A DNA stretch of 63,992 nucleotides, counting the filler, from Basidiobolus ranarum (Eukaryota), in the NCBI GenBank assembly GCA_040143965.1. It is 5 parts of 5 records of this genome, joined end to end, with 100 filler letters (N's around TTAATTAATTAA, not from the genome) between each part and the next. Parts side by side here need not be neighbours in the genome. Positions count along the whole stretch, not along the records: positions 39,076 to 51,978 come from JASJQH010000515.1; 4 more parts are not named here. One strand, given 5' to 3'. Below the pieces are notes generated by a model that was given only the letters and a program-made list of their open reading frames with translations, had not been told where the DNA came from and ran no database searches. Of this stretch, positions 12,933 to 57,059 are shown in pieces. The first letter of the stretch is position 1; every line of letters begins with the position of its first letter. Position numbers and translations under genes: made by a program.

Positions 12933-13032
12933 NNNNNNNNNNNNNNNNNNNNNNNNNNNNNNNNNNNNNNNNNNNNTTAATTAATTAANNNNNNNNNNNN
13001 NNNNNNNNNNNNNNNNNNNNNNNNNNNNNNNN
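12933..13032. other. Assembly gap (N run with TTAATTAATTAA spacer)
   Basis: Identical 100-bp construct at all four gaps (also 25962-26061, 38976-39075, 51979-52078). Confidence 0.98.
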
Positions 13033-14678: not shown

Positions 14679-16618
14679 TTACTTTTTACTTTTCGTGGCT
14701 TCTTCTATCATATCATCGGATAATACTTCAGCATCGCTACCAGCATCTGAACCAGCATAATTCTCATTATATTCTTCTTCAATATCTGAGTCACTATCTT
14801 CGGCGATGAAATCTTCATCAGGACTTTCTTCTTCTTCTTCACCTGGTGCACCTGGTGAGCTAACGCGGACACGCTTACGTCCACCACTTGTGTTCTCTTC
14901 TTCACTATCGGACAGATCTAATCCGGCGTAGCTAGTAGGTGCTTCATCGCCCAGTTCACTCTTCATCTTGATCTTCTTGGATTTGAGGAACTCTTCAAGA
15001 TTCGTGTATTCTTCTCTGTTGATGCTGGAGAATTGGTAATCCGTACCACTCTTCATATTGAACTTCACATCGAAAGTACGAACGGATGATGTAGCTGCAC
15101 TACCAACACTAAAAGGTAAAGAAAAGTGAGTTTAAGGGAGGATTTTCAATGGTTATGAAATCAATCTTTTCTTACCGTGAGAAGGTTACACTACCAACTT
15201 CTGAGTGGGGAATAAACGTGGGTGGCTTGGGGATAAACATAAAGCATTTCTCCAATGGATACAAGAAACCTTCATTCGCTTTCATCGAAGCCTTGACGGC
15301 AGATGTACCATGATGACTGCGGTATTGACCAGGGACGGTAACCTTTCTGCCGGTTAATACTCGGAATATCGTACTGATGACTTCATATGTGGGTGCTTCG
15401 TATTTCTTACTCAATTTCCCTTCGTATTTCTCCTCAATAGTCTCATCATCCAAGTTCAATAACACATCAATCTCCTCATCTCTAACAAATTGAGTCACTA
15501 AGAATGGATATCTAGTTTGACCCTGTCTGATGGGTGGATCCAATCCAATCACAAACATAACGTGAACATCATCTGGCTTGGGTAACAAGAATAGTTTGAT
15601 GATGTTGTTGTAGACGATTTTGTAGTCGTAAGTTTTACCACGTAAACGTAAGAAAGTAGGAAACATGTCCATATCGTAACGACCACGTGGTGTAAGACAA
15701 AGGATTTCTTGGAATAAGACAATACTTTCACCAGTAACTTGTCCCAAGTCTGCTTTAGTTTTAACAGTTTCGTAAAAGACAGATACGGCATTTTTAACTT
15801 CTTCACCGTCTTCTTTTTCACCTTCCCCTTCAGCAACTTCCTCTTCTCCGTCGGCATTGGTGGCTGTAGTACCTGGTATGTAAAATCTCATTTCTACTAA
15901 CTCATCCCCGGAAAATCCTTTCTTTTTGCTACCGAATCTATCGCTTTGTTCGGGGGACATAAATTCTAAACTAACTTCGTTCTTACCGGCCAAATTGGTG
16001 TTGGCCACTTCACTCATGGGTACTTCAAACATAGGTCTATTCTGTACATTGAAAGTGAGGTAATTTCCTAGAGTAAATGTATAGTTAACAAAAGAACTTC
16101 AAGACTCGTTTATACTTAATCAAAAACAAGAGCATGAAAGAAGCTCACAAATTACCTTCAAACTCAGTTTTTCCCCAATTCCAACCTTTCAAACTTAATT
16201 CTTTCATCTCCAACGGAATCTTGTATAAACTTTTGGCCACCTCTTTCAGAGTTTCAAAATCCTAACAATAAAATAAGTTTCATGGTTACTTGGATAAGTT
16301 CAAATAACTCGTAATCTTTTAACTTTCTTAACAAAGAAATATATATATGTGTATATATAGGTGGAAAAATCTCGATTTACTTACATTTCTATGAAAACCA
16401 TCAAACTTGACGGTTGCATCATTTCTTAACTTAATTCTTAACTCATAATCTCTGGCTGCACGTAACCAATAGAGCTTTCGAATCTCAGCAACTGGAATGG
16501 TAAAAATTTTCTCTCCTACTGTAGCCTTCCAACCGATACCACTATCTACCAATCTCAAACGACCTGGAGTTGGCTGTAAACCCAGGTAAATATTGTCGAA
16601 TTGGGTTTTACCTGACAT
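14679..16618 (-). CDS. POB3: FACT complex subunit Pob3/SSRP1, multi-exon, acidic tail, no HMG box
   Basis: KGWNWG, LTPRGRYDMD, LRGKTYDYKI, DPPIRQGQTRYP, ANEGFLYPLEK motifs. ATG at 16618. Confidence 0.97.
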
Positions 16619-22710: not shown

Positions 22711-23556
22711 TTAACAGGTACCCAAATCAGTCCAAACACTGTTAGTATCGGGTGATTCCTTTTGAGTCCACCATTTGGCCTCCCACAAATGCTTTTTGTA
22801 AGTCACCTTCTGAGCTCTATTGTAACCAGTTGCTGAGTTCCAAACTGGAAAACCGTTACAAATTCCCGCGCTTGGAGTGGAAGATGTTGGGCTTTTGTTA
22901 GACGCAGTGCTTGTGGTCGTAGGTATATCCTTGCCATTGGGACGAATAGTAACAGTTGGTCGCGCAGCCAATAAATTTCGACCATCATTAGGGCCATCTT
23001 GGGGGAATTCGGGAATAGTAGGGTATCCAGGAAGGTTGACAGTCAAAAGTTTAGGTCCAACAATAAAACCTTTATCAGATCCTTGAATCTCAATGTCAGC
23101 ACAATTCATATAGTACTCTCGATTTCCAATTTTGTTGATCCAAGTCCAGGCAAAGATAACATTCTTGCTAGAGCCAGCAGTATTAGGGATAGTCACGGAA
23201 TACTCCTTACTAGCAATGATACAATCACTGTAGATTGTTTCTAGCACCGCAAAAGTCTGACCCTTGTCATAGGAGATGGCAAACTGACAGTGACCTCCTT
23301 TATGAGTGGCAATTCCGCTAAGCTTGACCTGAATGGAACCACCAGCTTTCACAGTCTGGACAATCCCGCCTTGTTCATAGCCCTTGCATGGGTAGGTACC
23401 TAAAGGATTCACCATATCGTAGTCGGGGGAACCCTTCCATGTTGGATTGTGTCGGGAATGACGCGGCGGAGGCTGGATCATCTCCATATGAGCAACGGTC
23501 AACGTTGAAAAGCCAAGCAAGTAAACCGAAGATTGTAAGAAATTGAGGAACATCAT
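22711..23556 (-). CDS. AA11-type lytic polysaccharide monooxygenase with C-terminal CBM5/12 chitin-binding module, intronless
   Basis: Signal peptide then His1 (TVA|HMEM); THKGGHCQFAISYD; FAWTWINKIGNREYYMNCADI; Thr/Ser linker; WNSATGY...VTY...WEAKWWTQ...WTDLGTC. Confidence 0.88.
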   Translation of the reverse strand: MMFLNFLQSSVYLLGFSTLTVAHMEMIQPPPRHSRHNPTWKGSPDYDMVNPLGTYPCKGYEQGGIVQTVKAGGSIQVKLSGIATHKGGHCQFAISYDKGQTFAVLETIYSDCIIASKEYSVTIPNTAGSSKNVIFAWTWINKIGNREYYMNCADIEIQGSDKGFIVGPKLLTVNLPGYPTIPEFPQDGPNDGRNLLAARPTVTIRPNGKDIPTTTSTASNKSPTSSTPSAGICNGFPVWNSATGYNRAQKVTYKKHLWEAKWWTQKESPDTNSVWTDLGTC

Positions 23557-25205: not shown

Positions 25206-25961
25206 CTAAGCCGCTGGACGACAGATCAATTGACCAATAGCCAACTTGTTACAATCAATGCCTATATTACTCTTCAATAGTTGAGCTAGGGTTACCTTCC
25301 AAGCCTTCGTAATCTTGTCGCAAGTATCACCTGCTTTTACTGGTGAGGATTTCTCTCCATTTTGACAAAGTGGAGGGATACAAACGAGTTGACCAATAGC
25401 CAGCTGGTCACATTTCAGCTTAGGGTTAACTGACAAAAGTCTATCAACGTTGATACCATTCTTAGTTGCTATTGCTGAACAAGAATCACCTGACTTCACA
25501 GAGTAAGAAGTAGTTCCAGAAGCACATTTTGGTGGAGGTGTTACTGTAGGCTTTGGAGTTGCCGTAGGAGATGACACTGCGGGTGGTATACACATAGTCA
25601 GACCAACCGTCAATTGATCACATTTCACACTTGGGTTAGCTGCTTGAAGACTCTCCACCGATATGGTATACTTAGTGGCTATCGCATAACAAGTATCTCC
25701 TGATTTTACTGAATATTGACTTGCTCCTTTTTGGCAGCTCACTGAAGGAGTAGAGGTTGAAGTAACAGAAGTAGCGGTGGTGGGGATGGTAGTAGTGGCT
25801 GTGGGTGCTCCACCTCCGGGACGGCATATTAATTGACCAACATATAGGCGATCACAATCAAAACCAGGATTGCTCATCTGGAGTTGAGTTAGACTCACCA
25901 TCGATGATTGCATATATTTCGTACATGTATCACCCGAGACAACATAATATGGCTTGTCTTT
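25206..25961 (-). CDS. Multi-LysM (CBM50) protein, at least 4 LysM domains; 5' end lies in the gap
   Basis: YSVKSGDTCYAIA...LQAANP...C..L.VG...C repeats with Thr/Pro linkers. The first visible LysM (YYVVSGDTC) is out of frame near 25910. Confidence 0.9.
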   Translation of the reverse strand, partial: KDKPYYVVSGDTCTKYMQSSMVSLTQLQMSNPGFDCDRLYVGQLICRPGGGAPTATTTIPTTATSVTSTSTPSVSCQKGASQYSVKSGDTCYAIATKYTISVESLQAANPSVKCDQLTVGLTMCIPPAVSSPTATPKPTVTPPPKCASGTTSYSVKSGDSCSAIATKNGINVDRLLSVNPKLKCDQLAIGQLVCIPPLCQNGEKSSPVKAGDTCDKITKAWKVTLAQLLKSNIGIDCNKLAIGQLICRPAA

Positions 25962-26061
25962 NNNNNNNNNNNNNNNNNNNNNNNNNNNNNNNNNNNNNNN
26001 NNNNNTTAATTAATTAANNNNNNNNNNNNNNNNNNNNNNNNNNNNNNNNNNNNNNNNNNNN

Positions 26062-38475: not shown

Positions 38476-39075
38476 AAAGAAAGGTTTGGATGAGTTGGGA
38501 TAAGATAGAGTGGGGGCTTGGGGAGATATCCTGCCCAGTGAATCATAGGCTTGATCATTTGCTCAGGGTATAGTTCTCCTAGCAAAGGTCACAGAGGGTA
38601 AAGATTTGTTTACTACTATATTATCACTTACTTAGGGGGATGAAAAGCACCAGATGGTGTGGACCTTATTTAGCTTATATACTAACCCAAACAAAGTGAC
38701 AATCAAGACATCAATCTTTTAAGATATTGTGACAATACTGTATAATATCCATACTTAACTTGATGACCAATGTCATCAAGTTCAGAGGATGCAAATATAG
38801 TGTTAGAGGCTAAAGGTGGTAAGCAGAAAGGAAGGTACTTAGGGTATAGATGTTCTGGTAAGGGTCAGGATGAAAAGAGGGGGTCTGCAGGATACAGTCC
38901 TCCCAGTATAAAAAGAAAGCAGGGGGTATGGGGGATGCAATCCCCTATGTAAAAAAGAAAGCAGGGGGTTTGGGGNNNNNNNNNNNNNNNNNNNNNNNNN
39001 NNNNNNNNNNNNNNNNNNNTTAATTAATTAANNNNNNNNNNNNNNNNNNNNNNNNNNNNNNNNNNNNNNNNNNNN

Positions 39076-39812
39076 CCATGGTGTTTACGAACATCCTCTA
39101 CACTAACATCGTAGTTTTCTTTACGATCACGGTCACCGTGCAGTTTATTCCTGCTACCTACTTTAGTTGGATGGTTATCTTTTCTTCCATGAAGTTCATG
39201 ACCTCTACCTGCTCCAAAATCGTGATCCACTTTACCATTATTGTCTCCTTTTCCTTTATGAATTTTTCGGTGGTTGTTTTTATCAGTATCACTGTGTTTC
39301 TTACCACTGCCATCTTTACCATCCTTGGAGCCATGCCCGTTTAATCGAGGCGCCGATTTAGTGTCGTAACCTTTCTTGACTCCATGATCTTTGTTAGCAC
39401 CACCTTTTACTGTTGGGTGACCTCCATCCTTATCATCCTTACCTCCCCTACAATGGCTATCTTTACCACCACCTGCTCCAGCGTCATATGCTCTTTTTTT
39501 GATATGCTCTCCGTTGCCATGCCCTAGTCGAGATTTGACACATTGCCTCTCATCACATCTTAAGCCGAGAATGTTAGCACTCTGGACTAAGGTTTTGCAA
39601 TCATGCCTGATAGGTCGAGAGATGTCGATGTGGAGTCTCCTTATATCAATGTGACCACAAGCTCTGATGTCCAAGCTTATGCCATAGACCTTCAACTCGG
39701 TAACAACGCCTTGGCAATACTTGCGATAGGCATTTGAATCCGGAATGTTAACACTGGCCACTAGTGTGAGAACTGCGAATGTCAATAATGATTTCAAGGC
39801 AAAAAACTTCAT
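39076..39812 (-). CDS. His/Gly/Lys-rich secreted repeat protein, array copy 1 (3' end in gap)
   Basis: MKFFALKSLLTFAVLTLVAS signal, 5-Cys domain, KKRAYD, low-complexity tail. Close paralog of copies 2 and 3. Confidence 0.8.
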
Positions 39813-40703
39813 GCTGTTGGAGTGAAGAATGAAAATGAGAATGAATGAAGAATTAAGTAGTAGGAAGATTGGAATGCTGATTTACTTTTCTTTTTCTTTA
39901 TTCATAATATCTCAGCCAAGGTCCACTCTGTGCTAAAATTAGCCTCAGCCAAGAGGGTAGCATTAAGTAATTAGCCTTATTTGGTAAGCGTTTCTTCAGG
40001 AGATTCTGGATACTGATATAACAATGTCGAACCAGTAATTTTATTTCATCTCTACAGTTTTAGTAGATAGCGCTTCAGCATGATGCAAATCTAACCAAAT
40101 ATAGGTGCATTTTCGTATTGACATCAGCTCGAATTATTTCAATATGGCTGTCTTATTGAGAGACATAGGAATTCCTTCCAGCAGTGAACGCTAATTCATT
40201 ACTTCGGTATACGAGCTATTCGTAGTACATTAGAAATACAATTTTGCGTCCTGAAGGATTTAGAGACGAAACTAGCAATAGTTGAACTGGTCTCATAAGG
40301 CATCTTCAATTTCTGTCTTTTCGCACATGTAGACACAAATAGAGAGCAGAGTTCTAGTTTGCTCTTGAACTATCTCCACAAAGTTCATTTCTCCACGATT
40401 TCACAGAACTTAGGAATTAGTTGAAAATAGAGTTACTTTCGGAATAAATATATATGCGAATATTCATTTCAACCTAGTACCCGAAAGATGACTACGTACT
40501 GCAAAAAACTCAATCTTTTTGGATTAAATTTATTCAAATGAAAAAACTGAAATGAAAAGGATATATCCCACTTGTTAGTAAAGTCCATTATAACAAGAGG
40601 AAGGTTACATCAGTACTGAATCATGTGTCAAAAGCTAACGGAGTTGGCCACTCGTGTCACCTTCATAGTCAAGCATACACTTTGTCATCAGACTTTTACT
40701 CCA

Positions 40704-41795
40704 TTAGTATGCTGACTTCCCACCACGTGCGAGAGTAACATGGGTGTCTTTACCTCTATCTTCTTTGCTGTCACCGCCTTTGCCATCAACTCTCTTGCCT
40801 CCATGTCCATTGCCAGAACCGTTGGTGCCGTAGTCTCCTTTACACGATTTTCCATGATGTTTGTCGAACCCCTTAGTACCAGCATTATGGCCTCTCTTGT
40901 TGTCTTTGCCATCTTTCTGTTCATGGCGCCTGCCACTACTGTTTCCACTCGCTTCTTTACCATCTTTATCATCTTTTTTTCCGTGTTTATACCCCACGTC
41001 GTATTTCTTGCTATGAGCGCTTACAACAGTTGCGTGGTTTTCTTTGTGCCATTTTTTTCCATGGTGTTTACCGATATCCTCTACACTGACATCGTAGTTT
41101 TCTTTACGATTACGATCTCCGTGCAGATTATTCTTGCTACCTACTTTGGTTGGATGGTAATCTTTTCTTCCATGATGTTTATGACCACCGCCTACCCCGA
41201 AATTATAATCAACTTTCCCATCATTGACCCCTTTCCCTTCATGGATTTTTCTGTGGTCATTTTTACCAGTCTCATCGTGCCTGTTACCTCTACCGCTTTT
41301 ACCATCTTTGGATCCATGTCCGCTTAAGCGAAGCGCCGATTTACTATCATAGCCTTTCTTGACTCCATAATCTTTGTCAGCACCGCCTTTTCCTGCTGAG
41401 TGACTTCCATCCTTACCATCCTTGCCTCCTCTACTATGACTATTCTTGCCACTTCCTGCTCCTAAATTATATGCTCTTTTTGTGATATGTCTTCCGTTGC
41501 CATGCCCTAGTCGAGATTTGTCACACTGTATCTCGTCACATCTTAAGCCGAGGATGTTAGCACTCTGGACTAAGGTTTTGCAATCATGCCTGATAGGTCG
41601 AAAGATGTCAATGTGGAGTCTCCTTATATCAATGTGTCCACAAGCTCTTATGTCCAAGCTTATGCCATAGACCTTCAACTTGGTAACAACGCCTTGGCAA
41701 TACTTGTGATATGCATTTGAATCCAGAATGTTAACACTGGCCACTAGTGTGAGAACTGAGAATGTCAATAATGAATTCAAGGCAAAAAACTTCAT
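40704..41795 (-). CDS. His/Gly/Lys-rich secreted repeat protein, array copy 2 (363 aa)
   Basis: Complete ORF; signal peptide, Cys domain, TKRAYN, G/H/K/D-rich tail. TATAAAG upstream at ~41895. Confidence 0.85.
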   Translation of the reverse strand: MKFFALNSLLTFSVLTLVASVNILDSNAYHKYCQGVVTKLKVYGISLDIRACGHIDIRRLHIDIFRPIRHDCKTLVQSANILGLRCDEIQCDKSRLGHGNGRHITKRAYNLGAGSGKNSHSRGGKDGKDGSHSAGKGGADKDYGVKKGYDSKSALRLSGHGSKDGKSGRGNRHDETGKNDHRKIHEGKGVNDGKVDYNFGVGGGHKHHGRKDYHPTKVGSKNNLHGDRNRKENYDVSVEDIGKHHGKKWHKENHATVVSAHSKKYDVGYKHGKKDDKDGKEASGNSSGRRHEQKDGKDNKRGHNAGTKGFDKHHGKSCKGDYGTNGSGNGHGGKRVDGKGGDSKEDRGKDTHVTLARGGKSAY

Positions 41796-42014
41796 GCTGT
41801 TGAAGTGAAGAATGAAAATGAGAATGAATGAAGAATTAAGTAGTAGGAAGATTGGAATGCTGATTTACTTTTCTTTCGAGAAAACACAAGTGCCTTTATA
41901 CTCTTACTCTACAGTGCATCATTTACACCTGAACCACATTCTCTTTGAATATCAGTGAATCTCTACTCTTCGTAAGTACAAATTCATAATATCTCAGCCA
42001 AGGTACACTGTGTG

Positions 42015-42073
42015 CTAAATTTAGCCTCAGCCAACAGGGTAGTCCTCGATAAAATTAGACTAGCCTTATTTGG
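42015..42073. promoter_or_regulatory. MEF2/Rlm1-type CTA(A/T)4TAG and CArG CC(A/T)6GG boxes upstream of copy 2 (also 39933/39975, 44111/44153; CArG alone at 48813 and 50083)
   Basis: Exact consensus matches CTAAATTTAG and CCTTATTTGG. The CArG sits ~260-270 bp from the ATG in copies 2, 3 and 5. Confidence 0.5.
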
Positions 42074-42873
42074 TAAGCGTTTCTTCAGGAGATCCTGGAT
42101 ACTGATATAGCAATGCCAAACCAGCAATTTTGTTAGATATTTACAGTTTTGGCGGATAATGTTTCCGGATGATGCAAATTTAACCAGACGTAGTATATTT
42201 TCGATTTGATAGCAACCCAAATGATTGCAATATAGCTGTCTTATAGAGAGGCCTAGTGATGCTTTCTAGCAATGAATGCAAATTCATTACTTCGATATAT
42301 GAACTATTTATAATACATTAGAAATGTTTATTATGTCTTGGGACCTATGCCTTAGGTTGGTAACCAATAAAAGACTTCTTGGTGATACTTGCTATACGAC
42401 TTTGCGTCCTGAAGGTTATAGAGATAAAACTGGTATTAGTAGAACCGCTCGTGGAAGTCTTCTCCAATTCCTGTCTATTTCGCGCATTCAGACGCAAATT
42501 AAGAGCATAGTTCGTTTACTCTTGAACTATCTGCACCAAGTCTATTTCTTGACAATTTCCCAGAATTTTGAAATTAGTTGAATATAGAGTTACTTCCGCA
42601 ATAACTATATATGCGAATACCCATTTCAAACTATCGAACAAGCAGTGCCTGAGAGATGACTGCGTACTGCATAAAACTAAATCTTTTTAGATTGTGTTTA
42701 TTCAAATAAAAACTTAAATAAGTAGGATATATCCCTCACATGTTAGTATAATATATTATAACAAGATCAAGGTTACATCACTACTAAATTCTGTTTCAAC
42801 AGTTAGAGGAGTTGACCACACATGTCACCTTCATAGTTGAGCACATACATTTTGTCAACAGGCTTTTACTCCA

Positions 42874-43896
42874 TTAGTATGCCGACTTCCCGCTGCGTGC
42901 GGGTGTGACATGAGTGTCTTTGCCTCTATCTCCTTTGCCGTCACCGCCTTTGCCATCTACTCTCTTGCCTCCATGTCCATTGCCAGCACCGTTGGAGCCG
43001 TAGTCTTCTTTGCTTGATTTTCCATGATGTTTGTCAAGCCCCTTAGTGCCAGCATTGTGGCCTCTCTTGTTGTCTTTGCCATCCTTCTGTTCATGGGGCC
43101 TTTCACTACCATTTTCATGAGCTTCTTTACCATCTTTATCACTCTTTCTTCCGTATTTATGCCCAACATCATATTTCTTACTATGACTGTTTACACTAGT
43201 TGTGTGGTTTTCCTTGTGCCATTTTCTTCCATGATGTTTACGGACATCACCTACACTGACGTCGTAGTTTTCTTTGCGATTACGGTCACCGTGCAGTTTA
43301 TTACTATTATCAGCTTCAGTTGAATGGCTATTCTTTCTTCCATGATGTGTTTTGCCATCATGCACTCCAAAATGATAATTGTCTTTACCATTATTGTCCC
43401 CTTTCCCCTCATGGATTTTCCTGTGATTGTCTTTGCCATCCTTGGATCCATGTCCTTTTAGGCCAGGTGCCGCTTTTCTGTCGTAACTACCCTTCACTCC
43501 ATGATCTTTGTCAGCACCGTCTTTACCTCCTCTACGATGGCTAGTTTTGCCACCTCCTGCTCCTACATCATAACCCCTTTTTTTGATATGCCCTCCATTA
43601 CTATGTCCTAGTCGAGATTTGATACACTGCTTCTCATCGCACCTTAAGCCGAGAATGTTAGCACTCTGGACTAAGGTTTTGCAATCATGCCTGATAGGTC
43701 GAGAGATGTCGATGTGGAGTCTCCTTATATCAATGTGTCCACAAGCTCTTATGTCCAAGCTTATGCCATAGACCTTCAACTCGGTAACAACGCCTTGGCA
43801 ATACTTGCGATATGCATTTGAATCTGGAATGTTAACACTGGCCACTAGCGTGAGAACAGAGAATGTCACCAATGATTTCAATGCAAAAATCTTCAT
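42874..43896 (-). CDS. His/Gly/Lys-rich secreted repeat protein, array copy 3 (340 aa)
   Basis: ATG at 43896 (MKIFALKS), same architecture, KKRGYD. Confidence 0.85.
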   Translation of the reverse strand: MKIFALKSLVTFSVLTLVASVNIPDSNAYRKYCQGVVTELKVYGISLDIRACGHIDIRRLHIDISRPIRHDCKTLVQSANILGLRCDEKQCIKSRLGHSNGGHIKKRGYDVGAGGGKTSHRRGGKDGADKDHGVKGSYDRKAAPGLKGHGSKDGKDNHRKIHEGKGDNNGKDNYHFGVHDGKTHHGRKNSHSTEADNSNKLHGDRNRKENYDVSVGDVRKHHGRKWHKENHTTSVNSHSKKYDVGHKYGRKSDKDGKEAHENGSERPHEQKDGKDNKRGHNAGTKGLDKHHGKSSKEDYGSNGAGNGHGGKRVDGKGGDGKGDRGKDTHVTPARSGKSAY

Positions 43897-45001
43897 GCCG
43901 ATGAAGTAAGAAATGAAAATGAATTGAGAAAGAAAGTAGTTGAAGGATTGCAATGCTGATTTACTTTTCTTTCATGAAAATACATGCCCTTTTATACTCT
44001 TACTCTACCGCGAATTGTTTACACCTGAGCCACGCTATCCCTTGAAATCAGTATATTTCTACTCTTCATAGGTACAAACTAATAATATCTCAGCCAAGGT
44101 ACGCTCTGTGCTAAAATTAGCCTCAGCCAAAAGGGTAGCATTAAGTAATTAGCCTTATTTGGTAAGTGTTTAGTCAGGAGATCCTGGATACTGATATAAC
44201 AATGCCAAACCAGTAATTTCATTAGATATTTACAGTCTTAGCAGGAAATGCTTTAGGATAATGCAAATATAACCAAATATAAGTGCATTTTCGTTTTGAT
44301 ATCAACTCCAACCATTTTAAGATGACTGTCATATTGAGAGGTTCAACTATGCCTTCTAGTAGTGAATGCCAATTCCTTCCTCCGGTTTACTAGCTATTTA
44401 TAGTATATTGGAAATATTTATTATGTCTTGGGCCATATGCCGTAAGTTGGTAACCAATGAAAGACTCCTCGGTGATACTCGCTATACAACTCTGCGTCGT
44501 AAAAGTTTTAGAGATAAATTTAGCATTAGTTGAACTTTTCTCGTACATTTTCTCCAATTTCGGTCTGTTTCACACATGCAGACACAAATAGAGAGCATGT
44601 ATCGTGGTTAATTTTGACCAACTCCACAAAGTTCATTTCTTAAGAGTTTCAGCAATAGTTTTAAATGGCCAAACATTACGTATGACCTCGTTTGCAAAGA
44701 ATTCAGATGAAAATAGAGTTACTTCTGATATAAATATACATGCGAATACCCATTTCAAACTATCGAACAAGCAGTGCCTGAGAGATGACTGCGTACTGCA
44801 TAAAACTAAATCTTTTTAGATTATATTTATTCAAATGTAAAAACTGAAATGAGTAGAATATATCCCCCACTTGTTAGTATAATGCATTATAACAAGATCA
44901 AGGTTACATCACTACTAAATTCTGTTTCAACAGTTAGCGGAGTTGGGCACTCGCGTCACTTTCATAGTCAAGTACATGCATTTTGTCATTAGGCTTTTAC
45001 A

Positions 45002-45494
45002 CTATTGGTATGCCGGCTTCCCGCTGCGTGCGGGAGTGACATGAGTGACTTTGCCTCTATCTTCTTTGCCGTCACCGCCTTTGCCATCTATTCTCTTGCC
45101 TCCATGTCCATTGCCAGAACCGTTGGTGCCGTTGTCTCCTTTACTCGATTTTTCATGATGTTTATCGAACCCCTTAGTGCTAGCATTGTGGTCTCTCTTA
45201 TTATCTTTGCTATCCTTCTGTTCGTGGCGCCTGCCAATTACCGTCTCCACTTTACCACCTTTTCTTCCGTGTTTATGCCCCACATCGTGTTTCTTGCTAT
45301 GACTGCTTACACCAGTTGCGTGGTTTTCTTTGTGCCATTTTTTTCCATGGTATTTACGGACATCCCCTACACTTCAGCTCGGAAACAACACCTTGGCAAT
45401 ACTTGCGATATGCATTTGAATCTGGAATGTTAACGCTGGCCACTAGCGTGAGAACAGAGAATGTCACCAATGATTTCGATGCATAAATCTTCAT
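45002..45494 (-). pseudogene. Array copy 4, inactivated by a ~518-bp frameshifting internal deletion
   Basis: MKIYASKS...YCQGVVSELK joins directly to tail sequence (GAAG|TGTAGG) and hits TAA. The 3' part matches the tails of copies 2 and 3. Confidence 0.85.
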
Positions 45495-46520
45495 GCCGAT
45501 GAAGTACGAAATGAAAATGAATTGGGAAAGAAAGTAGTTGAAGGATTGAAATGCTGATTTACTTTTCTCTCATGAAAATACAGATGCTTATATACTCTTA
45601 CTCTACAGTAAATCGTATACTTGAATCACGCTATCTTGGAATATCAGTATATTTCTACTCTTCGTAGGTACAAACTAATAATATCGATGCACACCGAACC
45701 AGTGATGAATATATATTTTTATGTATCAGTACGATTACTTTCAACAGCGAGTGGCAGTACTTCTATATATGATCTATCTTTAGTGCGCCAAAAATGAATG
45801 TTGTAGTTCAAGATGACTTAAGTGGTACTTATATTCAATTAAAGCATCTATCACTTCACTGATTTAAACCTTTTATAGCAAGTGTCCTGATGACCGATTT
45901 ACTAAAAATAGTAAGCATATTAAAGCGAGTATATCATATAATATAGGCAATTACGATCCATTGTGTTTCAGAAAACTGGTAAACGAGAACATTATAATTA
46001 AGAGAAATTCAGTGTCAATGAAAGAGTCAATTCATACGTATACATCAATATCGTGGTTATTTGCATATCTTAGCTCAGTGCCTAGTCAAATACGATCCTT
46101 AGAATAGGAATAAACCGTATTTGGAGTTTCTTGGGTTTTGATATTCAGCATCAACTAAAAGCTGTTTTCAGTTATTGTTTCAGCTTCGATATAGTGTGTA
46201 CTGTTACTATTTCAATTCCCATGGAATTCATATTCAGATGAGATTAACTGGCATCTGCATTCCAAAACCATTAAATAATCTACAGGAATGCCCTCAGTAT
46301 GTTTACATACTGATTACAGCTATGATTGTGTAACTGAATCTTCAATTTTTGCTTTTCTTGCTTTATTTAAGAATATATTGCGGCTGGATTAGAGAAACAA
46401 AAGTAGGATATATTTCCTTACTGCTGGAACAATAGATACTCTCAAATTCACGCTTACATAATTACTAAATTCTGCTACTAGTCAACACTCACGTCGCTTT
46501 CTTAGCCAGACGCATAGGCA

Positions 46521-48551
46521 TTAGGGTTTGACTTTTACACCATCAGTACGCTTACGGCCTCCAGTAGTATAGTCAATTTCACCTCTATTCCTTATGCCAC
46601 TGCCAACTTCCCCATTCTTACGATTCTCTCCGTAGCTGCCTTTGTTCGATTTTTCTTCACAATCTTCATCAGTTCCTCCAACACCGGCATTATGATTAAC
46701 TTTTCGCCATTTTCTTCCACGTTCATCATCAGCATCATTATTATCGTGATCACTTGCTTGAGTGTGGTGGACTGATTTATCAGATTTTTGTCCATCGCCT
46801 TTACCTGTACCACTGACACTGACTTTGTAACCTTCTTTTCTCCATTCTCTTCCATGCTTTTCATGCGAATCACCTGCATCGTGGTCTTCGCTACGACTAT
46901 GACCTTCATGCTCTTTATTGAGATTAGATTGTTGACCGTGGCCTTTATCAGCACCATGATCTCCTTTATGCCATTCACCTTCACCAGCAGTGCGGTCTTC
47001 TCTACGACCATGGCCTCCATGCTCTTTATCACTATCCTCTACCCTGGTGACATGGTTACCCCTTCCTCCTTGATGCTTACCGCCACCTCCTACTCCAAAT
47101 CCGTGGTCATCGTTACCAGATTTTCGTCCATAGCCTTTCCTTATACCACTAACACCAGTAGATTGACCCCCCTCTTTTCTCCATTTACTTCCATGGTTTT
47201 CATGCGAATCACTTTCACCAAAATCGTGATCTTCTTTAGGACCATGGCCCCCGTGCTTTTTATCACTATCCCCTTCCCTGGTGGCATGATCACCGCTTCC
47301 TCCTTGATACTTACTGTCACCAAATCCGTAGCCGTCGTTATGATGTTTACCATCAAATACGCGATCGCCATTACCAGATTTTCGTCCATGGTCTTTACCT
47401 GTAGCACTAACACCGGTGTTGTGATCTTTTCTCCATTTTCTTCCATATTTTTCATGCGAATCACCTTCGCCAAAATCATGGCCTTCTCTATGACCATGAC
47501 CATCATGCCCATCATCATGATCACCTACTCGAGTATGGTATACTGCCTTATCAAATTTTTGTTCGTGGTCTTTACGAGCATCGCTAACGCCAGCGCCATG
47601 ACCTCCTTTGTGCCACTCTTTTCCATGGTTTTCATGAGAATCGCCTTCATTACCAGCGCTATGACTTCCTTTGTGCCATTCTTTTCCATGGCCTTCGTGC
47701 TCTCTATCGCGATTAGATTGTCGTCTGTGGCCTTTATCAGCACCATGACCTCCTTTATGCCATTCTTTTCCATGATTTTCATGAGAATCGCCTCCATTAC
47801 CAGCGCCATGACCTCCTTTGTGCCATTCTTTCCCATGGCCTTCATGCTCTTTATCGCGATTAGGTTGTCGTTTGTGGCCTTTACCAGCGCCATAACCTCC
47901 TTGATGCCATTCTTTTCCATGGTTTTCATGAGAATCGCCTCCATTACCATGACTTTTATGCTCACTCTTAGTGCCGCTTTTTCTATCATGATGATCAGCA
48001 CCATCATTTACTCCATAATTATAGCCCCCTTTGCGTTTTCCTACGGCATGACGTTTCTTACCGTGATCTTCGTTAGTTTCACAATCTTCTTTACCACCTT
48101 TAGTTACTTGTCCTTTTGCGTAATGCTTTCCTCGATGATGCTCTCCAGCACTACTTAATTCAGCAGAGTGGCCACTATGTCCACTGTCACTATAATTGTC
48201 CTCCCCTTTGTGGTTGTTATCGCTACCTAATGCTCTTACATCATAGTTCCTTTTTCCGATGCGGTCTCGAGGCTTGTCACATTGTTTTTTGTTACATTTT
48301 AGGCCCAAACTGTTAGCACTCCTGACTAAAGTTTTGCAATCCTGCCTGCTTGGTTGAGTGACGTCGGTGGGGAATTTTCTCAAATTGATGTGATCACAAG
48401 CTCTTATATTCAAGCCTATACCATAGGCTTCCAAGCCGGAAACAACACCTTGGCAATACTGACGGTATGATTTTGAATCGGAAAGGCCTACACCAGACGC
48501 TAGTGTAAGAGCTGAGATTGTCAATAATGATTTCAATGCAAAAGCCTTCAT
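46521..48551 (-). CDS. Long His-rich secreted repeat protein, array copy 5 (676 aa)
   Basis: MKAFALKS signal, conserved 5-Cys domain, GKRNYD, tail with HGKEWH(K/Q)G repeats in a 49-aa dyad. Confidence 0.87.
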   Translation of the reverse strand: MKAFALKSLLTISALTLASGVGLSDSKSYRQYCQGVVSGLEAYGIGLNIRACDHINLRKFPTDVTQPSRQDCKTLVRSANSLGLKCNKKQCDKPRDRIGKRNYDVRALGSDNNHKGEDNYSDSGHSGHSAELSSAGEHHRGKHYAKGQVTKGGKEDCETNEDHGKKRHAVGKRKGGYNYGVNDGADHHDRKSGTKSEHKSHGNGGDSHENHGKEWHQGGYGAGKGHKRQPNRDKEHEGHGKEWHKGGHGAGNGGDSHENHGKEWHKGGHGADKGHRRQSNRDREHEGHGKEWHKGSHSAGNEGDSHENHGKEWHKGGHGAGVSDARKDHEQKFDKAVYHTRVGDHDDGHDGHGHREGHDFGEGDSHEKYGRKWRKDHNTGVSATGKDHGRKSGNGDRVFDGKHHNDGYGFGDSKYQGGSGDHATREGDSDKKHGGHGPKEDHDFGESDSHENHGSKWRKEGGQSTGVSGIRKGYGRKSGNDDHGFGVGGGGKHQGGRGNHVTRVEDSDKEHGGHGRREDRTAGEGEWHKGDHGADKGHGQQSNLNKEHEGHSRSEDHDAGDSHEKHGREWRKEGYKVSVSGTGKGDGQKSDKSVHHTQASDHDNNDADDERGRKWRKVNHNAGVGGTDEDCEEKSNKGSYGENRKNGEVGSGIRNRGEIDYTTGGRKRTDGVKVKP

Positions 48552-50199
48552 CCTGATGAAGTAAATGGGTATAAATGAATACAAAAGTGTAAGTAAATTA
48601 AGGGAATGAATGGAATGTTGATTTACTTTTCATTCGAGAAATATCAAGTGCTTTTATACTCTTATTTTACCATCAGTTGTTTGCATCCAAACCTTGTACT
48701 CCTGAAATCTCGAAAATCTGTGGATATTTACCTTGTGCAGGAATAAACTGATATCTCAGCTGGCGCATTCTACGCTAAGATTACACTCAGCTATGTTGCA
48801 TTGGCTAATTAGCCTTATTTGGTTAGAGTTCGAAACGGAGGAATTGGATACTGATATAGTAATGCCAAACCACCAATCTCATATAAGAGAATACATTTAA
48901 CGACAGCAACAGATAGCATATTTATAAAACCATACTTCAGCGCAATATATCTTTCAGCGAAACCTTATATGAAGATACTTCGCTCAGTTACCCAGTATAA
49001 TGAATCATATCAAATAATGTACAACTCACGTTAGCGTCTACAAATGGATCCACTACAGCAGTGTGTAAAGTCTCAGGAGCAGAGGAGAAAAGAGCACAAA
49101 TACATTTTATATTAAGTGAAAACAAAATTTTAGAGTGTAGCTAACATTGAGTATAAATCATCAACAAGCAACATTCATGGTTGATTTCGTCAGGTGTACA
49201 TTAGTCTCCACTGAAGTGTAGCATTAACGTGCTCGTCAGCTACTTGGTTACTGAGGCAGCTTCTATGCATCATATTTACTTTCACTGTTCTTCTATAGTA
49301 CCGCTTATACCAATATCACAACCATCGTTTCCACCACCTCCTTTAACGTCGTTGTCTTCATTACCTTTCTCACTCCTGCCTTCGTTCATTATATTTTAAG
49401 CCTAAATCAGTATCATTCGAGTTGGATATTGCTATAGCAATGCCTAACCATCAACCTCCTTAAATTTTCATATCTGAGATCAATACTGAATTATTATGCG
49501 TGTCGAACAAAATGGCTAGAGATGAATGTAAGTCACCATTTTCTCATCGGTGTCAAAGCCAACAATTTGTTATAACAGTGAGTGGTAGTTTCACCGTTTC
49601 AATTTATGAGCTATGTATAGTACATTAAAATGGATATTGTGTCTTGGGAGATATTGACCTCCTTTTAGGGGTAATCAAATAAAGCGAAAGTCGATCTTTT
49701 GACATGAACACAAAGACTTTTTCGGATGTGAACTCTAAGGTACTTGTTTCAAGCAATAATTAATCAATATAAAACCACATAGTACAGAAAGCCCAACATC
49801 TACTAGGCTATTTCATTATGCATTGATTTAGCTTCAGTGAATAGAGTGCCATATAACACATTAGGATTCAATCCATCGAGTAAACAATACTCCGGAATAT
49901 AAACAGTAACTGAGGTAATGTAATATATTTATGAGTTTAAATGGTGCCACAATCATAGTACTCACACTCATCTTAATAGACTCAATACTGGCAAAAATTC
50001 GATATTGGATTATCTGCTTAGAGCTGCTTCAATAGCCCCTTTCTACTTCCATTCAGCCAGGAGGATAGTACCAGTATATTAACCTTATTTGGTTAGATTT
50101 CAGCATATACTATCATTCACTAGATATTTGCATCAAAGCTTTCGATACTGAATTATATCAATAGTATCAGCTTTCGATACGGGTAATCTATTTGCCTTC

Positions 50200-50570
50200 C
50201 ATTTGCCGTAATATATTCACCATAGTATGCTCACTTTACCATCTTTGTCACTATCATCATTACCTGCACTAGGTAGATTAACAAATGCTTCTATTTGAGC
50301 CAATCTGTATGGCTGCCACCAACTTCATTACCAGAATCAGTTTTCCTGTCCTTACGCGCCGCTTACTCAAGCAGGGTTATCACCTCAATCATCATTTCGT
50401 TCATTGCCCTTACCACCACCGGATCCAGCGTCGCTACTGTCTTTATCATCACATCCTTTACCGTCCTTTCCTCAATTGTGGTCCCCACCACCGAGTCTAT
50501 TGGCATAACTTCGTTTCCCACTGTTGCCTGGGTAATCTGTAGCATTTCTTCTATCATCGCTAATATTTTC
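50200..50570 (-). pseudogene. Decayed array member
   Basis: Minus frame ...NSGKRSYANRLGGGDHN*GKDGKGCDDKD...*...VNLPSAG with in-frame stops. Upstream remnants of the shared promoter block at 50640-50870. Confidence 0.6.
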
Positions 50571-51160
50571 TTATTGAAATTTAATGCGATCCTTTGGGCC
50601 ACAAACTAAATAAAGTATTTAAAATATTGGACGGGAATACTGATTTATTTTTGTTTCAAAAGATTCCAAATACCTTAATACTCTTAATATGCAATCAATT
50701 GCGTATATCCGAACTTTGCACTCCTGAAATATCCGACATTTATATATTTCTGCCCTTTCAGACGTAAACTAAAAACCCAGCTATGGTGCACTCTGCTAAA
50801 ATTACACTCACTCTTACTTGGTTGTATTTCAGTAAAAATCTGAATACCGCTATGGTAATGCCAAACCACTAATTGCACTTCTACTACGCCGTTGATATTG
50901 TGCTAAACTGTACATAAATATGCACAGTTGTCTGAGTGTTGCTTGCCATAAAAAAAGTGAAGTCAAATATGAAAAACAAAAGATTAATCCCAACTCATGG
51001 TTCTACATATTGTATTGATGCTTGTTCCTACTAAAAAGATTAATCATAGCTTGATTCTGGGATTTTATTTGTGAGAATATCACTATCTTGACTATCAAAA
51101 ACAAATAGTATACACTTTCTTTCTGCTAAAATATTGAATATCAACAAACCACCACATTAG

Positions 51161-51880
51161 TTAATTATGTTTTGTGTGCCCTCCTTTCTGACTAGAAGTA
51201 TTTCCACCACTATGGCCGCCAGCTTCTCCAGTATCAGAGCCGCTTTTACCGCCTTTGCTACTGCTACCTTTACCACCACCATTATCCAAACCGATATTTG
51301 CCCCAATATTTATACCACTCGAATGGCTACCTCCATTGCCTTTGTCGCCACCACCGCTACCTACGCCTGGTAACTTGACATCGGCGCCAATATTGACTCT
51401 ACCTTTACCATCACCATTGCCTTTATCGCCGTTGCTGCCATTTATACCCGGTAGATTAACATCAGCACCAATATTGATCCCACTTTTACCACCATTGCTT
51501 TTATTGCCACCGCTACTGCCACCTACACCTGGTAGATTAACCTCAGCCCCAATATTGACCCCACTTTTACCACTACTACCTTTATCGCCACCACCTACAC
51601 CCGGTAGATTTACGTCAGCACCAATATTGACTCCACTTTTACCTCCATTGTCATTACTACCACCTACTCCGGTATCATAGCCACTTTTGCCGCCCTTGCT
51701 TCCATTGTCTTTACCATCTCCTGCTCCTGTATCGTAACTATCTTTGCCGTTATCACCTTTCCCGCCCTTACCTCCGTTATCTTTGCCACCACTTACGCCA
51801 GTATCGTAGCCACCTTTGCCATTATTACCTTTTTCGCCCTTACCTCCGTTATCTTTGCTACCGCTTACACCACTAAGCCC
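51161..51880 (-). CDS. Gly-rich repeat protein (YDTG x3; G(V/I)NIGA(D/E)V(N/K)LPG-like x4-5); N-terminus missing
   Basis: Open frame with regular repeats. Sequence character switches abruptly at a GCGGCCGC site near 51882. Confidence 0.7.
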   Translation of the reverse strand, partial: GLSGVSGSKDNGGKGEKGNNGKGGYDTGVSGGKDNGGKGGKGDNGKDSYDTGAGDGKDNGSKGGKSGYDTGVGGSNDNGGKSGVNIGADVNLPGVGGGDKGSSGKSGVNIGAEVNLPGVGGSSGGNKSNGGKSGINIGADVNLPGINGSNGDKGNGDGKGRVNIGADVKLPGVGSGGGDKGNGGSHSSGINIGANIGLDNGGGKGSSSKGGKSGSDTGEAGGHSGGNTSSQKGGHTKHN

Positions 51881-52078
51881 AGCGGCCGCGGCAAAAGCTG
51901 CGAAGGCGTTCGCCAGACGAGAAGAGGAAAGTCTTTCACCCAATCTAGAGGATGAAGAAGCAAAAGCAACTCTAGGTTNNNNNNNNNNNNNNNNNNNNNN
52001 NNNNNNNNNNNNNNNNNNNNNNTTAATTAATTAANNNNNNNNNNNNNNNNNNNNNNNNNNNNNNNNNNNNNNNNNNNN

Positions 52079-54518: not shown

Positions 54519-57059
54519 ATGAGCATTGTTGAATTGATTCAACGCGGTGATCTGGTAGCTATACAAAAGAGCGTGCTTCCTACAAGCATCAACCAACTGG
54601 ATCATAATGGGAATTCCCTCTTAGGGACAGCTTCGATAAATGATAATGCAGCGGTCATTGAGCTTCTACTGAAGATCGGTGCTGATGTAAACTTGAAAAA
54701 TACCGATGGAAAAAGTCCCATGTCCATTGCTTCGAGACATGGAAACTTTCAAGCTATGAGAGCTTTGGGTACTCAGAAGTGGGATGTCAGCGAACAAGGG
54801 TATGGTGTGTTACTGGATTGTGTTCAATATAACAATTCAGAGATAATCGAATGGTTATATCATCAAGGCATCACACAATCACTATTTGACGATGCAGAGA
54901 AGCTTCCAATTGTACAAGCTATCTATTACGGTCAATTGAATATCGTAAAGAAATTGGTCGAGCTTGGATTTGACGTTAACCAATTCGAATCTTGTGGCAA
55001 TAAAAACTCACCACTAATGATGGCGACTTACTGGGAAAAAGTGGATATCATTCAATATCTACTTGGTATACCTCAACTCAACCTGGATTCCCAGAGACAA
55101 GGCCATCAAAGTTTGATGGTGGCAATCGATCGAAAAAACCATTCGATTGTTCATAGACTACTTGAAGCGGGTATTAACCCTAACGACTATGATCCAGATA
55201 TTGACTTTGTGCCTATGGTTCAAGCAGGATACGCAGGTATACCAGATATAGCTAAAGAATTAATCAAGTATGGTGCCAAGATTGATGCGATCGACAGGCG
55301 AAATGAATCTGCGCTAACTCTTGCTTCGTATTGGGGATATCATGAATTAGTTAGATACCTGCTATCCGAGAATATAGACCTTACATCGCATAATCAGGGC
55401 AAAGTAAGCTTACTCAAAGCGATCGATCAAGACAATCATCGGATTGTTAAATATTTGCTAGAAGCTGGACAAAACGCAAATAGTGAAGATCCGGAAGTAG
55501 ATAAAGTTCCTATCATAGTTGCGAGCTATAAGGATAATGAGAAGATCATAAAATCCCTTCTAGAGTATGGAGCAGATATAAATGCTATAGGGCCAGATTC
55601 CTCTACTTCATTGACTACCAGTGCTTACTGGGGCCATGAAAAGGCCTTGGATTGCTTGCTTGAACATGGTGTGGCACTTGAGAAAGGCAAAAAACAAGGT
55701 TTTCGTGCCCTCATTACATCCATTGATCGCGGATACTATCGTATCACCCGGAAACTACTTAAGGCTGGTGTGAATCCCGGAGACTATGACCCAGAGATAG
55801 ATCATGTACCTATGGTGTCTGCAGGTAATAATGGAACTGTGAAAACATTGGAAATATTGGTCGAATTCAACCATGATATCAATTCCGTACGACATGACAA
55901 CCACACTGCATTGACTATCGCAAGTTATTGGAACCACGAAGCCGCTGTAATTGCCATAATAGAAGCTAATGTGGCTATGGAAAAGCACCGTCAAGGGTGG
56001 AGAGCTTTGATCATTGCTATAGAACGGGGTTATCATCGGATTGTACGGCTATTGCTCAAAGCTGGTGTAGATGCTAGCTCGTTCGACGCTGAAGTGGATA
56101 AGATTCCATTTATCGTAGCAGCATGCGAAGGAAATGTTGAAACATTAAAGATATTAATCGGCGCGGGTTATGATCCCAATATTAATGGTGCTAATAATGA
56201 GAATCCATTATCAAGTGCAGTATTTTGGGACCATTATGATGCGACAAAATATCTAATTGAAAGCACATCGCTCGGGAAAAATGGAAAAATGATTGAAATC
56301 GCCATAGGTGTTGCTGAAAAACGAAGTCATTCAAGAATTGCCGCTTTACTAAGTGAGTTCTTACAAAACATGGAGAGCTCTGTCTTAGATAATATATTTG
56401 CCTGCATAAAGACGGGAGATATATCAGTTGTTAACAACTACATACTAGCGAACCCAGAATCAGTTTTCTTGAGATTGCAACCTACAGATCAGACTCCTTT
56501 GATGCTCGCAAGCATTGAAAACCAACCAGCTATAGTTGAGTCTCTTTTAGATCATGGTGCTCATATTGATGCAAGTGATAACGAACGACAAACGTCTTTA
56601 ATATTAGCCACACGTCTGGGTCATCAAGAAGTTGTCCGCATTCTGTTACAACGTGGAGCTAATCCAAATCTCACTATGGGACCGCAGAACAGAACTTCTC
56701 TTATGATCGCCATAGAAAATGAACAAAACGAAATATTCAACATGTTGATACAACATGAAGCTAATCATGGTTATCCTGATTTAAGACTACGAACCCCACT
56801 TATGTATGCAGCTGAACAAGGAAGAGATCACATGCTTCAAACATTAATCGAGAAAGGGGCTCGGATTCAGGATCGGGATGGAGAAGATTCTTCTGCTGTG
56901 ATGCTTGCATCTTACAAGGAACATCAGAAAACTGCACAGATTTTGTTGGAAAGTGGGGCTACAATAGAAACAAGAGACTTGAATAAGATGAGTGGCATTG
57001 AGTGGTCTACGGCGTTGATAAAGCAATTTGCTCGCAAGTCGTTAGCTAGCTTTTTCTGA
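54519..57059 (+). CDS. Large ankyrin-repeat protein (~846 aa, roughly 20 or more repeats), intronless
   Basis: Repeated TPL..A...G...IV..LL..GA..N motifs over the whole length; no other domain visible. Confidence 0.92.
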   Translation: MSIVELIQRGDLVAIQKSVLPTSINQLDHNGNSLLGTASINDNAAVIELLLKIGADVNLKNTDGKSPMSIASRHGNFQAMRALGTQKWDVSEQGYGVLLDCVQYNNSEIIEWLYHQGITQSLFDDAEKLPIVQAIYYGQLNIVKKLVELGFDVNQFESCGNKNSPLMMATYWEKVDIIQYLLGIPQLNLDSQRQGHQSLMVAIDRKNHSIVHRLLEAGINPNDYDPDIDFVPMVQAGYAGIPDIAKELIKYGAKIDAIDRRNESALTLASYWGYHELVRYLLSENIDLTSHNQGKVSLLKAIDQDNHRIVKYLLEAGQNANSEDPEVDKVPIIVASYKDNEKIIKSLLEYGADINAIGPDSSTSLTTSAYWGHEKALDCLLEHGVALEKGKKQGFRALITSIDRGYYRITRKLLKAGVNPGDYDPEIDHVPMVSAGNNGTVKTLEILVEFNHDINSVRHDNHTALTIASYWNHEAAVIAIIEANVAMEKHRQGWRALIIAIERGYHRIVRLLLKAGVDASSFDAEVDKIPFIVAACEGNVETLKILIGAGYDPNINGANNENPLSSAVFWDHYDATKYLIESTSLGKNGKMIEIAIGVAEKRSHSRIAALLSEFLQNMESSVLDNIFACIKTGDISVVNNYILANPESVFLRLQPTDQTPLMLASIENQPAIVESLLDHGAHIDASDNERQTSLILATRLGHQEVVRILLQRGANPNLTMGPQNRTSLMIAIENEQNEIFNMLIQHEANHGYPDLRLRTPLMYAAEQGRDHMLQTLIEKGARIQDRDGEDSSAVMLASYKEHQKTAQILLESGATIETRDLNKMSGIEWSTALIKQFARKSLASFF

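Follow-up and report, generated by a model that had tools for sequence, protein, structure and literature searches.

The window analyzed here is a 63,992-nucleotide stretch of DNA from Basidiobolus ranarum (assembly GCA_040143965.1), and the segment under study within it is contig JASJQH010000515.1, which carries a row of genes for a histidine- and glycine-rich protein. We show that these genes are real and constitute a tandem array encoding a Basidiobolus-specific modular protein with a secretion-type N-terminus. This conclusion is drawn from the intact open reading frames (ORFs), the shared protein architecture, the ratios of nonsynonymous to synonymous substitution (dN/dS), a conserved upstream flank containing a TATA box, and the existence of relatives in B. 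meristosporus. The proteins appear to belong to a kind that is already known, the fungal secreted pro-protein, of which the array family is a variant. The part that appears, from sequence comparison, to be undescribed is a lineage-restricted, apparently secreted family, in which a small Cys unit lacking any fold match is joined to a conserved putative processing site and to low-complexity tails that are exchangeable.

Minus-strand ORFs begin at all five start codons named in the original prediction (39812, 41795, 43896, 45494, and 48551; positions count along the window). The head-to-tail organization on duplication units proposed there was borne out as well, with unit spacings of 1983, 2101, 1598, and 3057 bp from copy 1 to copy 5, and unit-long DNA similarities, determined by blastn, of 77–90% among units 1–4 and ~70–75% to unit 5. 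At the protein level, copies 2, 3, and 5 are 80, 82, and 46% identical to copy 1, respectively. The prediction of at least five paralogs thus stands for the number of starts, but complete genes are limited to copies 2, 3, and 5. Copy 1, annotated as gene model K7432_008858, is open for 245 codons up to the end of the contig. Copy 4 lacks 518 nt corresponding to nucleotides 122–639 of the copy 3 coding sequence, which shifts the frame so that translation would end after 46 codons. In its assembled form this copy is a pseudogene, whose 3′ tail part (45005–45373) retains 74% protein identity to copies 2 and 3. Both ends of the array are cut by contig ends. The Gly-rich relative noticed beside the array is present, although only as an ORF truncated by the contig end. 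This ORF is composed of 31% Gly, 13% Ser, and 10% Asn with repeats of 81 and 72 bp, and its tail resembles those of the relatives P0004 and P0005, both of which carry the N-terminal domain, a resemblance to be read with caution given the low complexity of these sequences. The coordinates of all features are listed in the table.

Features of the array contig and of the adjoining part of the window
Feature	Position	Strand	Basis and remarks
Whole 12,903-bp contig, filled by the array	39076..51978	-	Segment bounds and DNA self-comparison
Copy 1 (signal-peptide-like start, Cys domain, KR, 138 aa of tail)	39076..39812	-	3′ part cut by contig end
Copy 2, complete, 363 aa	40704..41795	-	ORF
N-terminal domain of copy 2, aa 21–107	41475..41735	-	C33–C52 and C72–C91 half units plus extra C86
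KR 106–107 of copy 2	41475–41480	-	End of the N-terminal domain
TATA box of copy 2, TATAAAGG	41893..41900	-	~100 bp upstream of the ATG, inside the 5′ flank kept in copies 2–5
Copy 3, complete, 340 aa	42874..43896	-	ORF
Copy 4, pseudogene (internal deletion, frameshift, stop)	45005..45494	-	Comparison with copy 3
Copy 5, complete, 676 aa	46521..48551	-	ORF
147-bp (49-aa) tandem repeat within the copy 5 tail	47590..47949	-	2.4 copies, 91% matches
Fragments resembling intergenic DNA of units 2, 3, and 5	49419..49654	-	60–83% identity
Relic of a sixth unit	50608..50877	-	5′-flank homologue; degraded TATA, no ATG, no recognizable coding part
Gly-rich relative, partial	51161..51978	-	5′ part cut by contig end; any N-terminal domain would lie beyond it
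Artificial linker, 44 N + TTAATTAATTAA + 44 N		38976..39075	none	Identical 100-base spacer between all segments; not an assembly gap
Chitin synthase ORF, 790 aa	34027..36399	+	Pfam Chitin_synth_1, E 1.1e-71; in segment 26062–38975, outside the feature under study

Copies 2, 3, and 5 have retained the 5′ flank together with its TATA box ~100 bp ahead of the ATG; copy 4 reads TATATAAG at this place. The region upstream of copy 1 (39783–40012, compared with 41766–41995) is missing the part in which copies 2–5 have their TATA box, so that copy 1 may be poorly transcribed despite its open frame. Beyond copy 5, the original prediction had placed a decayed copy at 50.2–50.6 kb and a relic at ~49.3 kb. 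A homologue of the 5′ flank was indeed found next to the former, with 62–65% identity to the family flanks, but a tblastn search with seven family proteins detected no protein-level trace of decayed copies in 48.6–51.16 kb at E ≤ 0.01. The supposed decayed copy is therefore a promoter relic. At the latter position, the recognizable fragments are of the intergenic type.

All intact copies share one architecture, as had been predicted: a signal-peptide-like start, a five-Cys domain, a KR dipeptide, and a tail rich in Gly, His, Lys, and Asp. In detail, the sequence Met-Lys is followed by 15–17 hydrophobic residues, a 59-residue Cys domain with cysteines at positions 33, 52, 72, 86, and 91, the KR pair at positions 106–107 (100–101 in copy 5), and a tail of 230–575 amino acids. 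By inspection, the start, consisting of Met-Lys, the hydrophobic residues, and a stretch of small residues (VAS/V), is found in all copies and relatives. The KR pair lies 9–22 residues past the last Cys of the N-terminal unit or units in 17 of the 21 family proteins that possess a tail, and it has been kept across clades whose domains share only 26–35% identity. It is missing from P0004, P0014, P0021 (TR instead), P0022 (KN instead), and both of the proteins that consist of the unit only. In the AlphaFold2 (AF2) model, residues 96–112, KR included, form a low-confidence linker with a predicted local distance difference test score (pLDDT) below 50. Since KR or RR is described as the usual site of the fungal protease KEX2 (PMC6339444), a conserved KR within such a linker fits the look expected of a kexin pro-protein site, consistent with the earlier identification of the KR as a kexin motif.

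We used a profile of the four array N-termini to search 1.84 billion representative proteins with a cut-off of E ≤ 1e-3. The search returned 13 matches (E 8e-31 to 4e-04), one of which is the window's own protein, while the other 12 comprise eight proteins from B. ranarum and four from B. meristosporus CBS 931.73. A second search with a wider alignment yielded 16 proteins, all of them from Basidiobolus or the window itself. The matches are confined to this genus, and the array is therefore one of several branches of a family that is restricted to Basidiobolus and rests on a duplicated C-x18-C unit. Across 15 sequences, C33, G35, L40, G44, C52, and C91 are invariant, and P67, C72, A79, L82, and G83 nearly so. 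The unit, made of two C-x18-C halves in which G, L, and G-[IL] positions are conserved, was recovered by a regular expression from each of the four window copies. The two halves align with each other in register by hhalign (probability 91.7%, E 7.9e-07), from which it follows that the unit arose by internal duplication. The fifth cysteine, C86, is confined to the clade of the array. An AF2 model of the domain, based on 15 sequences, shows four short helices with pLDDT values of 66–86 over blocks 21–60 and 71–90; the alignment used for folding consisted of whole proteins, with the internal repeats of multi-unit relatives left out.

The relatives fall into groups that differ in what follows the unit. 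In one group the tail is Pro-rich, with PPxPEKP repeats and, at the C-terminus, a second Cys domain; a different group has Gly-rich tails; and P0010 and P0013 consist of repeated units only. In a tree of the N-terminal domain (18 rows, with P0014 and P0005 on long branches), the His/Gly-tail clade, composed of the array, P0004, P0005, and P0014, is separated from the Pro-rich clade with support values of 97/98. Tandem clusters also occur among the relatives: the Pro-rich genes K7432_013913–013915 lie on one 5,956-bp contig, and three B. meristosporus family genes lie on one 123,797-bp contig. The branch that combines a G/K/D/H-rich tail with the fifth cysteine was seen only in B. ranarum, in the array and in the partial gene K7432_013380.

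The original prediction had recognized no known family for these proteins. This holds for curated families, as none of the five array proteins matched a Pfam family at E ≤ 1, but not in the wider sense, given that the N-terminal domain belongs to the Basidiobolus-restricted family with the four-Cys unit. Among 12 relatives, Pfam gave three stray sub-threshold matches only (Ribo_biogen_C, Thi4, and DUF3859). Searches with the domain by itself, proposed earlier as a check, likewise found no Pfam, PDB-sequence, or fold match, and profile matches in Basidiobolus alone. A PDB sequence profile search gave one match, NisC (E 2.4), which was taken as chance. Foldseek against the PDB returned nine matches at E ≤ 10, none of which reached E ≤ 0.001, and VIA-align against 48,161 chains returned 345 matches at Z ≥ 2 and none at Z ≥ 5, the best having a Z of 3.5 and a root-mean-square deviation of 3.3 over 60 residues. 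The absence of a structural match for a modeled domain does not prove a new fold. The ESM Atlas gave no usable feature match for domain or tail, and its structural matches (TM ≤ 0.45, including β-helix enzymes for the tail) were disregarded, the ESM Atlas model of copy 2 having a pLDDT of 0.43. A word-index search covering longer lengths (670–2000 aa) found no match, which is weak evidence. No paper on the family was found in the literature on Basidiobolus or on His/Gly-rich secreted fungal proteins; the proteomics terms searched do not occur in PMC8231275, and passages of PMC9391592 mention Basidiobolus secretomes but not the family.

Selection was assessed by pairwise Nei–Gojobori estimates, computed with our own script, for the first 107 codons and for the tail. 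The dN/dS ratios were 0.11–0.36 in the former and 0.20–0.25 in the latter, and therefore domain and tail both appear to be under purifying selection. Among copies 1–3, dS was two to five times lower in codons 1–107 (0.13–0.26) than in the tail (0.57–0.84), a pattern that may reflect gene conversion in the 5′ region or, alternatively, poorer alignment and noise in the tail. The same difference in dS, read as homogenization or as stronger constraint on the domain, would also suit a rather improbable alternative, in which the Cys domain is a working binding or assembly module, the tail is an uncleaved spacer or brush, and the KR has been kept for some other reason. The tail-less proteins P0010 and P0013 imply that the unit can function alone, and the odd fifth cysteine could form intermolecular bonds. 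Weighing against this alternative, the tail, which makes up 65–85% of each complete protein, is itself under purifying selection, the KR lies in a low-confidence, exposed linker as expected of a processing site, and the domain offers no clue to a ligand or fold.

We tentatively favor, at somewhat less than an even chance, a surface or matrix role for the tail, namely that of a coat or adhesive responsive to pH and metals. According to this proposal, a kexin (Kex2-type) protease in the secretory pathway or Golgi would cut behind the KR and part the Cys domain from the tail. The freed His-rich polycation would then be retained on the cell surface or within the extracellular matrix, forming a hydrophilic coat or adhesive that responds to pH and metals, and tandem duplication would supply both dosage and diversity of tails. 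The role is favored because the tails that the sister branches bear on the same module, rich in Pro or in Gly, are of types that structural wall proteins typically have, because the family sits in dosage-raising tandem clusters, and because the wall proteins Rep1, Rsp1, and Hum3, described as cut by Kex2 (PMC4617103), provide a precedent.

The tails consist of 19–21% Gly, 11–16% Lys, 10–14% Asp, and 9–12% His; Met is absent, and large hydrophobic residues are very scarce. Their grand average of hydropathy is -1.7 to -1.9 and they fall on the disordered side of the Uversky boundary. In agreement with this, the AF2 model of whole copy 2 has pLDDT values of 26–36 and no secondary structure over residues 100–363. 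The tails lack a C-terminal hydrophobic stretch, and hence there is no sign of a glycosylphosphatidylinositol signal. The isoelectric point is 9.6–9.8 for the tails of copies 1–3 and 7.06 for that of copy 5. For copies 2 and 3, whose tails are complete, the calculated tail charge is +17 to +22 at pH 7.4 and +51 to +55 at pH 4.5; for copy 5 the charge moves from -3 to about +98 over the same interval, which points to a His-driven pH switch.

Such charges, +51 to +98 at pH 4.5, together with an almost complete makeup of disorder-promoting residues, are also what would be expected if the proteins were precursors of cationic, disordered, His-rich antimicrobials, released by kexin, most active at acidic pH, and used by a gut-dwelling fungus against competing bacteria. 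Linear cationic peptides rich in disorder-promoting residues are reported to have been microbicidal in every tested case under acidic conditions (CIDAMP; PMC6399351), and the SpTransformer genes of sea urchins are described as clustered, fast-diversifying genes for Gly/His-rich secreted immune proteins (PMC5491942). Cleavage at the internal KR and RR sites would yield fragments of up to 240 aa. However, the Pro-rich and Gly-rich tails of the sister branches are unlike antimicrobial peptides, the array tails contain 10–14% Asp, and the copy 5 tail is neutral at pH 7.4. We therefore consider an antimicrobial function unlikely, though worth keeping in view.

The histidines raise the further prospect that the tails chelate extracellular Zn, Cu, or Ni, scavenging or buffering these metals in a role like that of zincophores or His-rich dehydrins. 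There are 14–68 His residues per tail, the highest number being in copy 5, often arranged as HG, HH, or H-x-H. All 13 Trp residues in copies 2, 3, 4, and 5 occur within the motif [KE]-W-[HR]-[KQ], 12 of them with Gly at position -3, and copy 5 accounts for 10 of the 13. Copper binding has been reported for a disordered, His-containing tail of a fungal lytic polysaccharide monooxygenase (bioRxiv 10.1101/2025.11.04.686606). Nevertheless, at 9–12% His is less abundant than Gly, Lys, and Asp in copies 1–3 (in copy 5 only Gly is higher), the 12,903-bp contig holds no partner transporter or receptor gene, and no Pfam metal-binding family was matched at E ≤ 1, which makes dedicated metal chelation quite improbable.

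Several observations weigh against a kexin-released surface or matrix protein. The proteins look secreted on inspection of their sequences, and no Basidiobolus proteome or transcriptome paper covering the array genes was found. Four tailed members of the family do without the KR, and the 17 proteins that bear it are paralogs, many of them close, and are not independent observations. Furthermore, the K/R-rich tails hold additional KR, RR, and KK sites, at which cleavage could fragment the tail rather than free it intact. Part of the array is decaying, since the TATA stretch is missing upstream of copy 1 and the gene of copy 4 is disrupted. The helices of the N-terminal domain are not consistently amphipathic (for copy 2, 16–75% of shuffled sequences reach the observed hydrophobic moment) and thus lend no support to a hydrophobin-like surface activity.

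To our knowledge, hardly any work has been done on wall and spore-coat proteins in early-diverging fungi. If the surface or matrix role is true, the array family would join the few fungal surface and matrix proteins known so far outside Dikarya as a genus-specific member, one that pairs a previously undescribed mini-domain, pinned by disulfides, with exchangeable tails of low complexity; tails that are rich in His and switchable by pH could then be of interest for work on biomaterials or antimicrobial scaffolds. A much more far-reaching version, which we offer as speculation and hold to be improbable as a whole, is that the four-Cys family constitutes a surface-coat or glue system of Basidiobolus standing in for hydrophobins and repellents. 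In such a system, the Cys domain would deliver or assemble the protein, kexin would free the interchangeable tails, and the His-rich tails would serve as a pH- and metal-switchable spore adhesive or coat during passage from soil and insects into the acidic gut of amphibians and reptiles.

The array had originally been proposed to act together with a chitin synthase ~2.7 kb away, across an assembly gap at 38976. We found instead that this position is occupied by an artificial linker, and that four identical 100-base linkers occur in the window (12933–13032, 25962–26061, 38976–39075, and 51979–52078), splitting it into segments of 12932, 12929, 12914, 12903, and 11914 bp. The segment sizes match those of the public contigs recorded for the proteins encoded on each segment: the array proteins are recorded on a separate 12,903-bp contig, the chitin synthase ORF on a 12,914-bp contig, a multicopper oxidase on a 12,932-bp contig, and an ankyrin protein on an 11,914-bp contig. 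The window is a chain of separate public contigs with linkers carrying stops in six frames between them, rather than a scaffold, and any gene adjacency across a linker is therefore artificial. It follows that the chitin synthase is not a neighbor of the array. The only point in favor of a wall-building gene cluster formed by the two is their apparent 2.7-kb spacing in the window; given that they are recorded on two separate contigs, not on one DNA molecule within a few kb, and that the connecting linker recurs between all five segments, the claim of linkage is refuted and such a cluster has next to no probability. No physical or functional link between the array and the chitin synthase has been demonstrated.

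The final 60 bases of the chitin synthase contig (38916–38975) contain a repeated AAAGCAGGGGGT(A/T)TGGGG-type motif, which may have broken the assembly. The other segments of the window encode the multicopper oxidase (10204–11889, plus strand), an SSRP1/FACT-like fragment (15172–16032, minus), an ORF with weak, sub-threshold matches to CBM5_12 and AA9 (22711–23556, minus), a protein with three LysM domains (25206–25913, minus), and the ankyrin-repeat protein of 846 aa (54519–57059, plus). A short frame rich in Gly at the very beginning of the first contig (9–206, minus) is similar in tblastn to the P0004 and P0005 tails (E 2e-4 to 1e-6, with filters off), and could be either a further Gly-rich family member cut by the contig end or an instance of shared low complexity. 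Within the array, long antisense frames lie opposite the tails on the plus strand (46854–48158, 434 aa; 40740–41327, 195 aa; 45041–45433, 130 aa). They encode hydrophobic strings rich in Phe, Val, Ile, Thr, and Ser, and the 434-aa frame, the sole one scanned, has no Pfam match; most simply, they are a by-product of stop-poor, low-complexity sense codons.

With respect to known systems, the comparison with the proteins of squid beak and Nereis jaws is an analogy by composition alone (the array tails have 9–12% His, 19–21% Gly, and 21–30% Lys plus Asp), and an association with chitin, as in these His/Gly-rich structural proteins of animals, which have a very high Gly and His content and short GH-type repeats, is unsupported by linkage for the array. 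Hydrophilins of the dehydrin/LEA type resemble the tails in composition only, with no Pfam family at E ≤ 1. The tails share with the hornerin-derived CIDAMPs and with SpTransformer a cationic, Gly/His/Ser-rich, disordered, and secreted character, and the SpTransformer genes are, as described, tightly clustered like those of the array; these are, however, animal proteins that have no Cys pro-domain and no homology to the array proteins. Hydrophobins are likewise small, secreted fungal domains stabilized by cysteines, and UniRef automatically names five of the Pro-rich relatives "Hydrophobin". Hydrophobins contain eight cysteines including two CC pairs, whereas the Basidiobolus unit has four or five cysteines and no adjacent pairs. 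Neither PF01185 nor PF06766 was matched at E ≤ 1 by the five array proteins or the 12 relatives, and we rejected this assignment for the array proteins, which have five cysteines and no CC.

The KEX2-processed repeat proteins (KEPs; Le Marquer 2019, Umemura 2020) resemble the array proteins, with their signal-peptide-like start, in having a secretion-type N-terminus and KR/RR sites. They are defined by at least four fragments at KR/RR, of which at least three are similar and cover at least 15% of the protein (as given in PMC6339444). Copies 2, 3, and 5 give six, six, and eight fragments, respectively (39/48/183/11/34/28, 39/48/15/156/34/28, and 81/66/6/55/49/240/151/8 aa), and the partial copy 1 gives three. 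No three similar fragments lie between the sites, and the 49-aa repeat of copy 5 is present in only 2.4 copies; we therefore do not classify the array proteins as KEPs. Among fungi, B. meristosporus is reported to have the most KEPs, 43 in number (PMC7329392), and the four B. meristosporus family accessions have no occurrence in three supplementary table files of that paper.

Rep1, Rsp1, and Hum3 of Ustilago maydis are described as Kex2-processed secreted wall proteins (PMC4617103, PMC6339444) and, like the putative pro-proteins of the array, hold Kex2 sites alongside regions that are repetitive or of low complexity. A hydrophobin domain stabilized by cysteines is attached to the repeats of Hum3, and the Rep1 peptides stay on the hyphal wall, according to PMC4617103. 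There is no sequence relation, and the U. maydis proteins contain many similar repeats, each flanked by Kex2 sites, whereas the array proteins have one conserved KR past the domain and irregular internal sites; in addition, the Rep1 peptides are amphipathic, while the array tails are extremely hydrophilic. The uncharacterized Basidiobolus relatives (such as K7432_003642, K7432_013913–013915, and K493DRAFT_302390/302387/374606) possess the same four-Cys unit and share the signal-peptide-like start, the KR shortly past the unit, the low-complexity tail, and the organization in tandem clusters, but differ in carrying Pro-rich or Gly-rich tails in place of the G/K/D/H-rich tail and in having no fifth cysteine.

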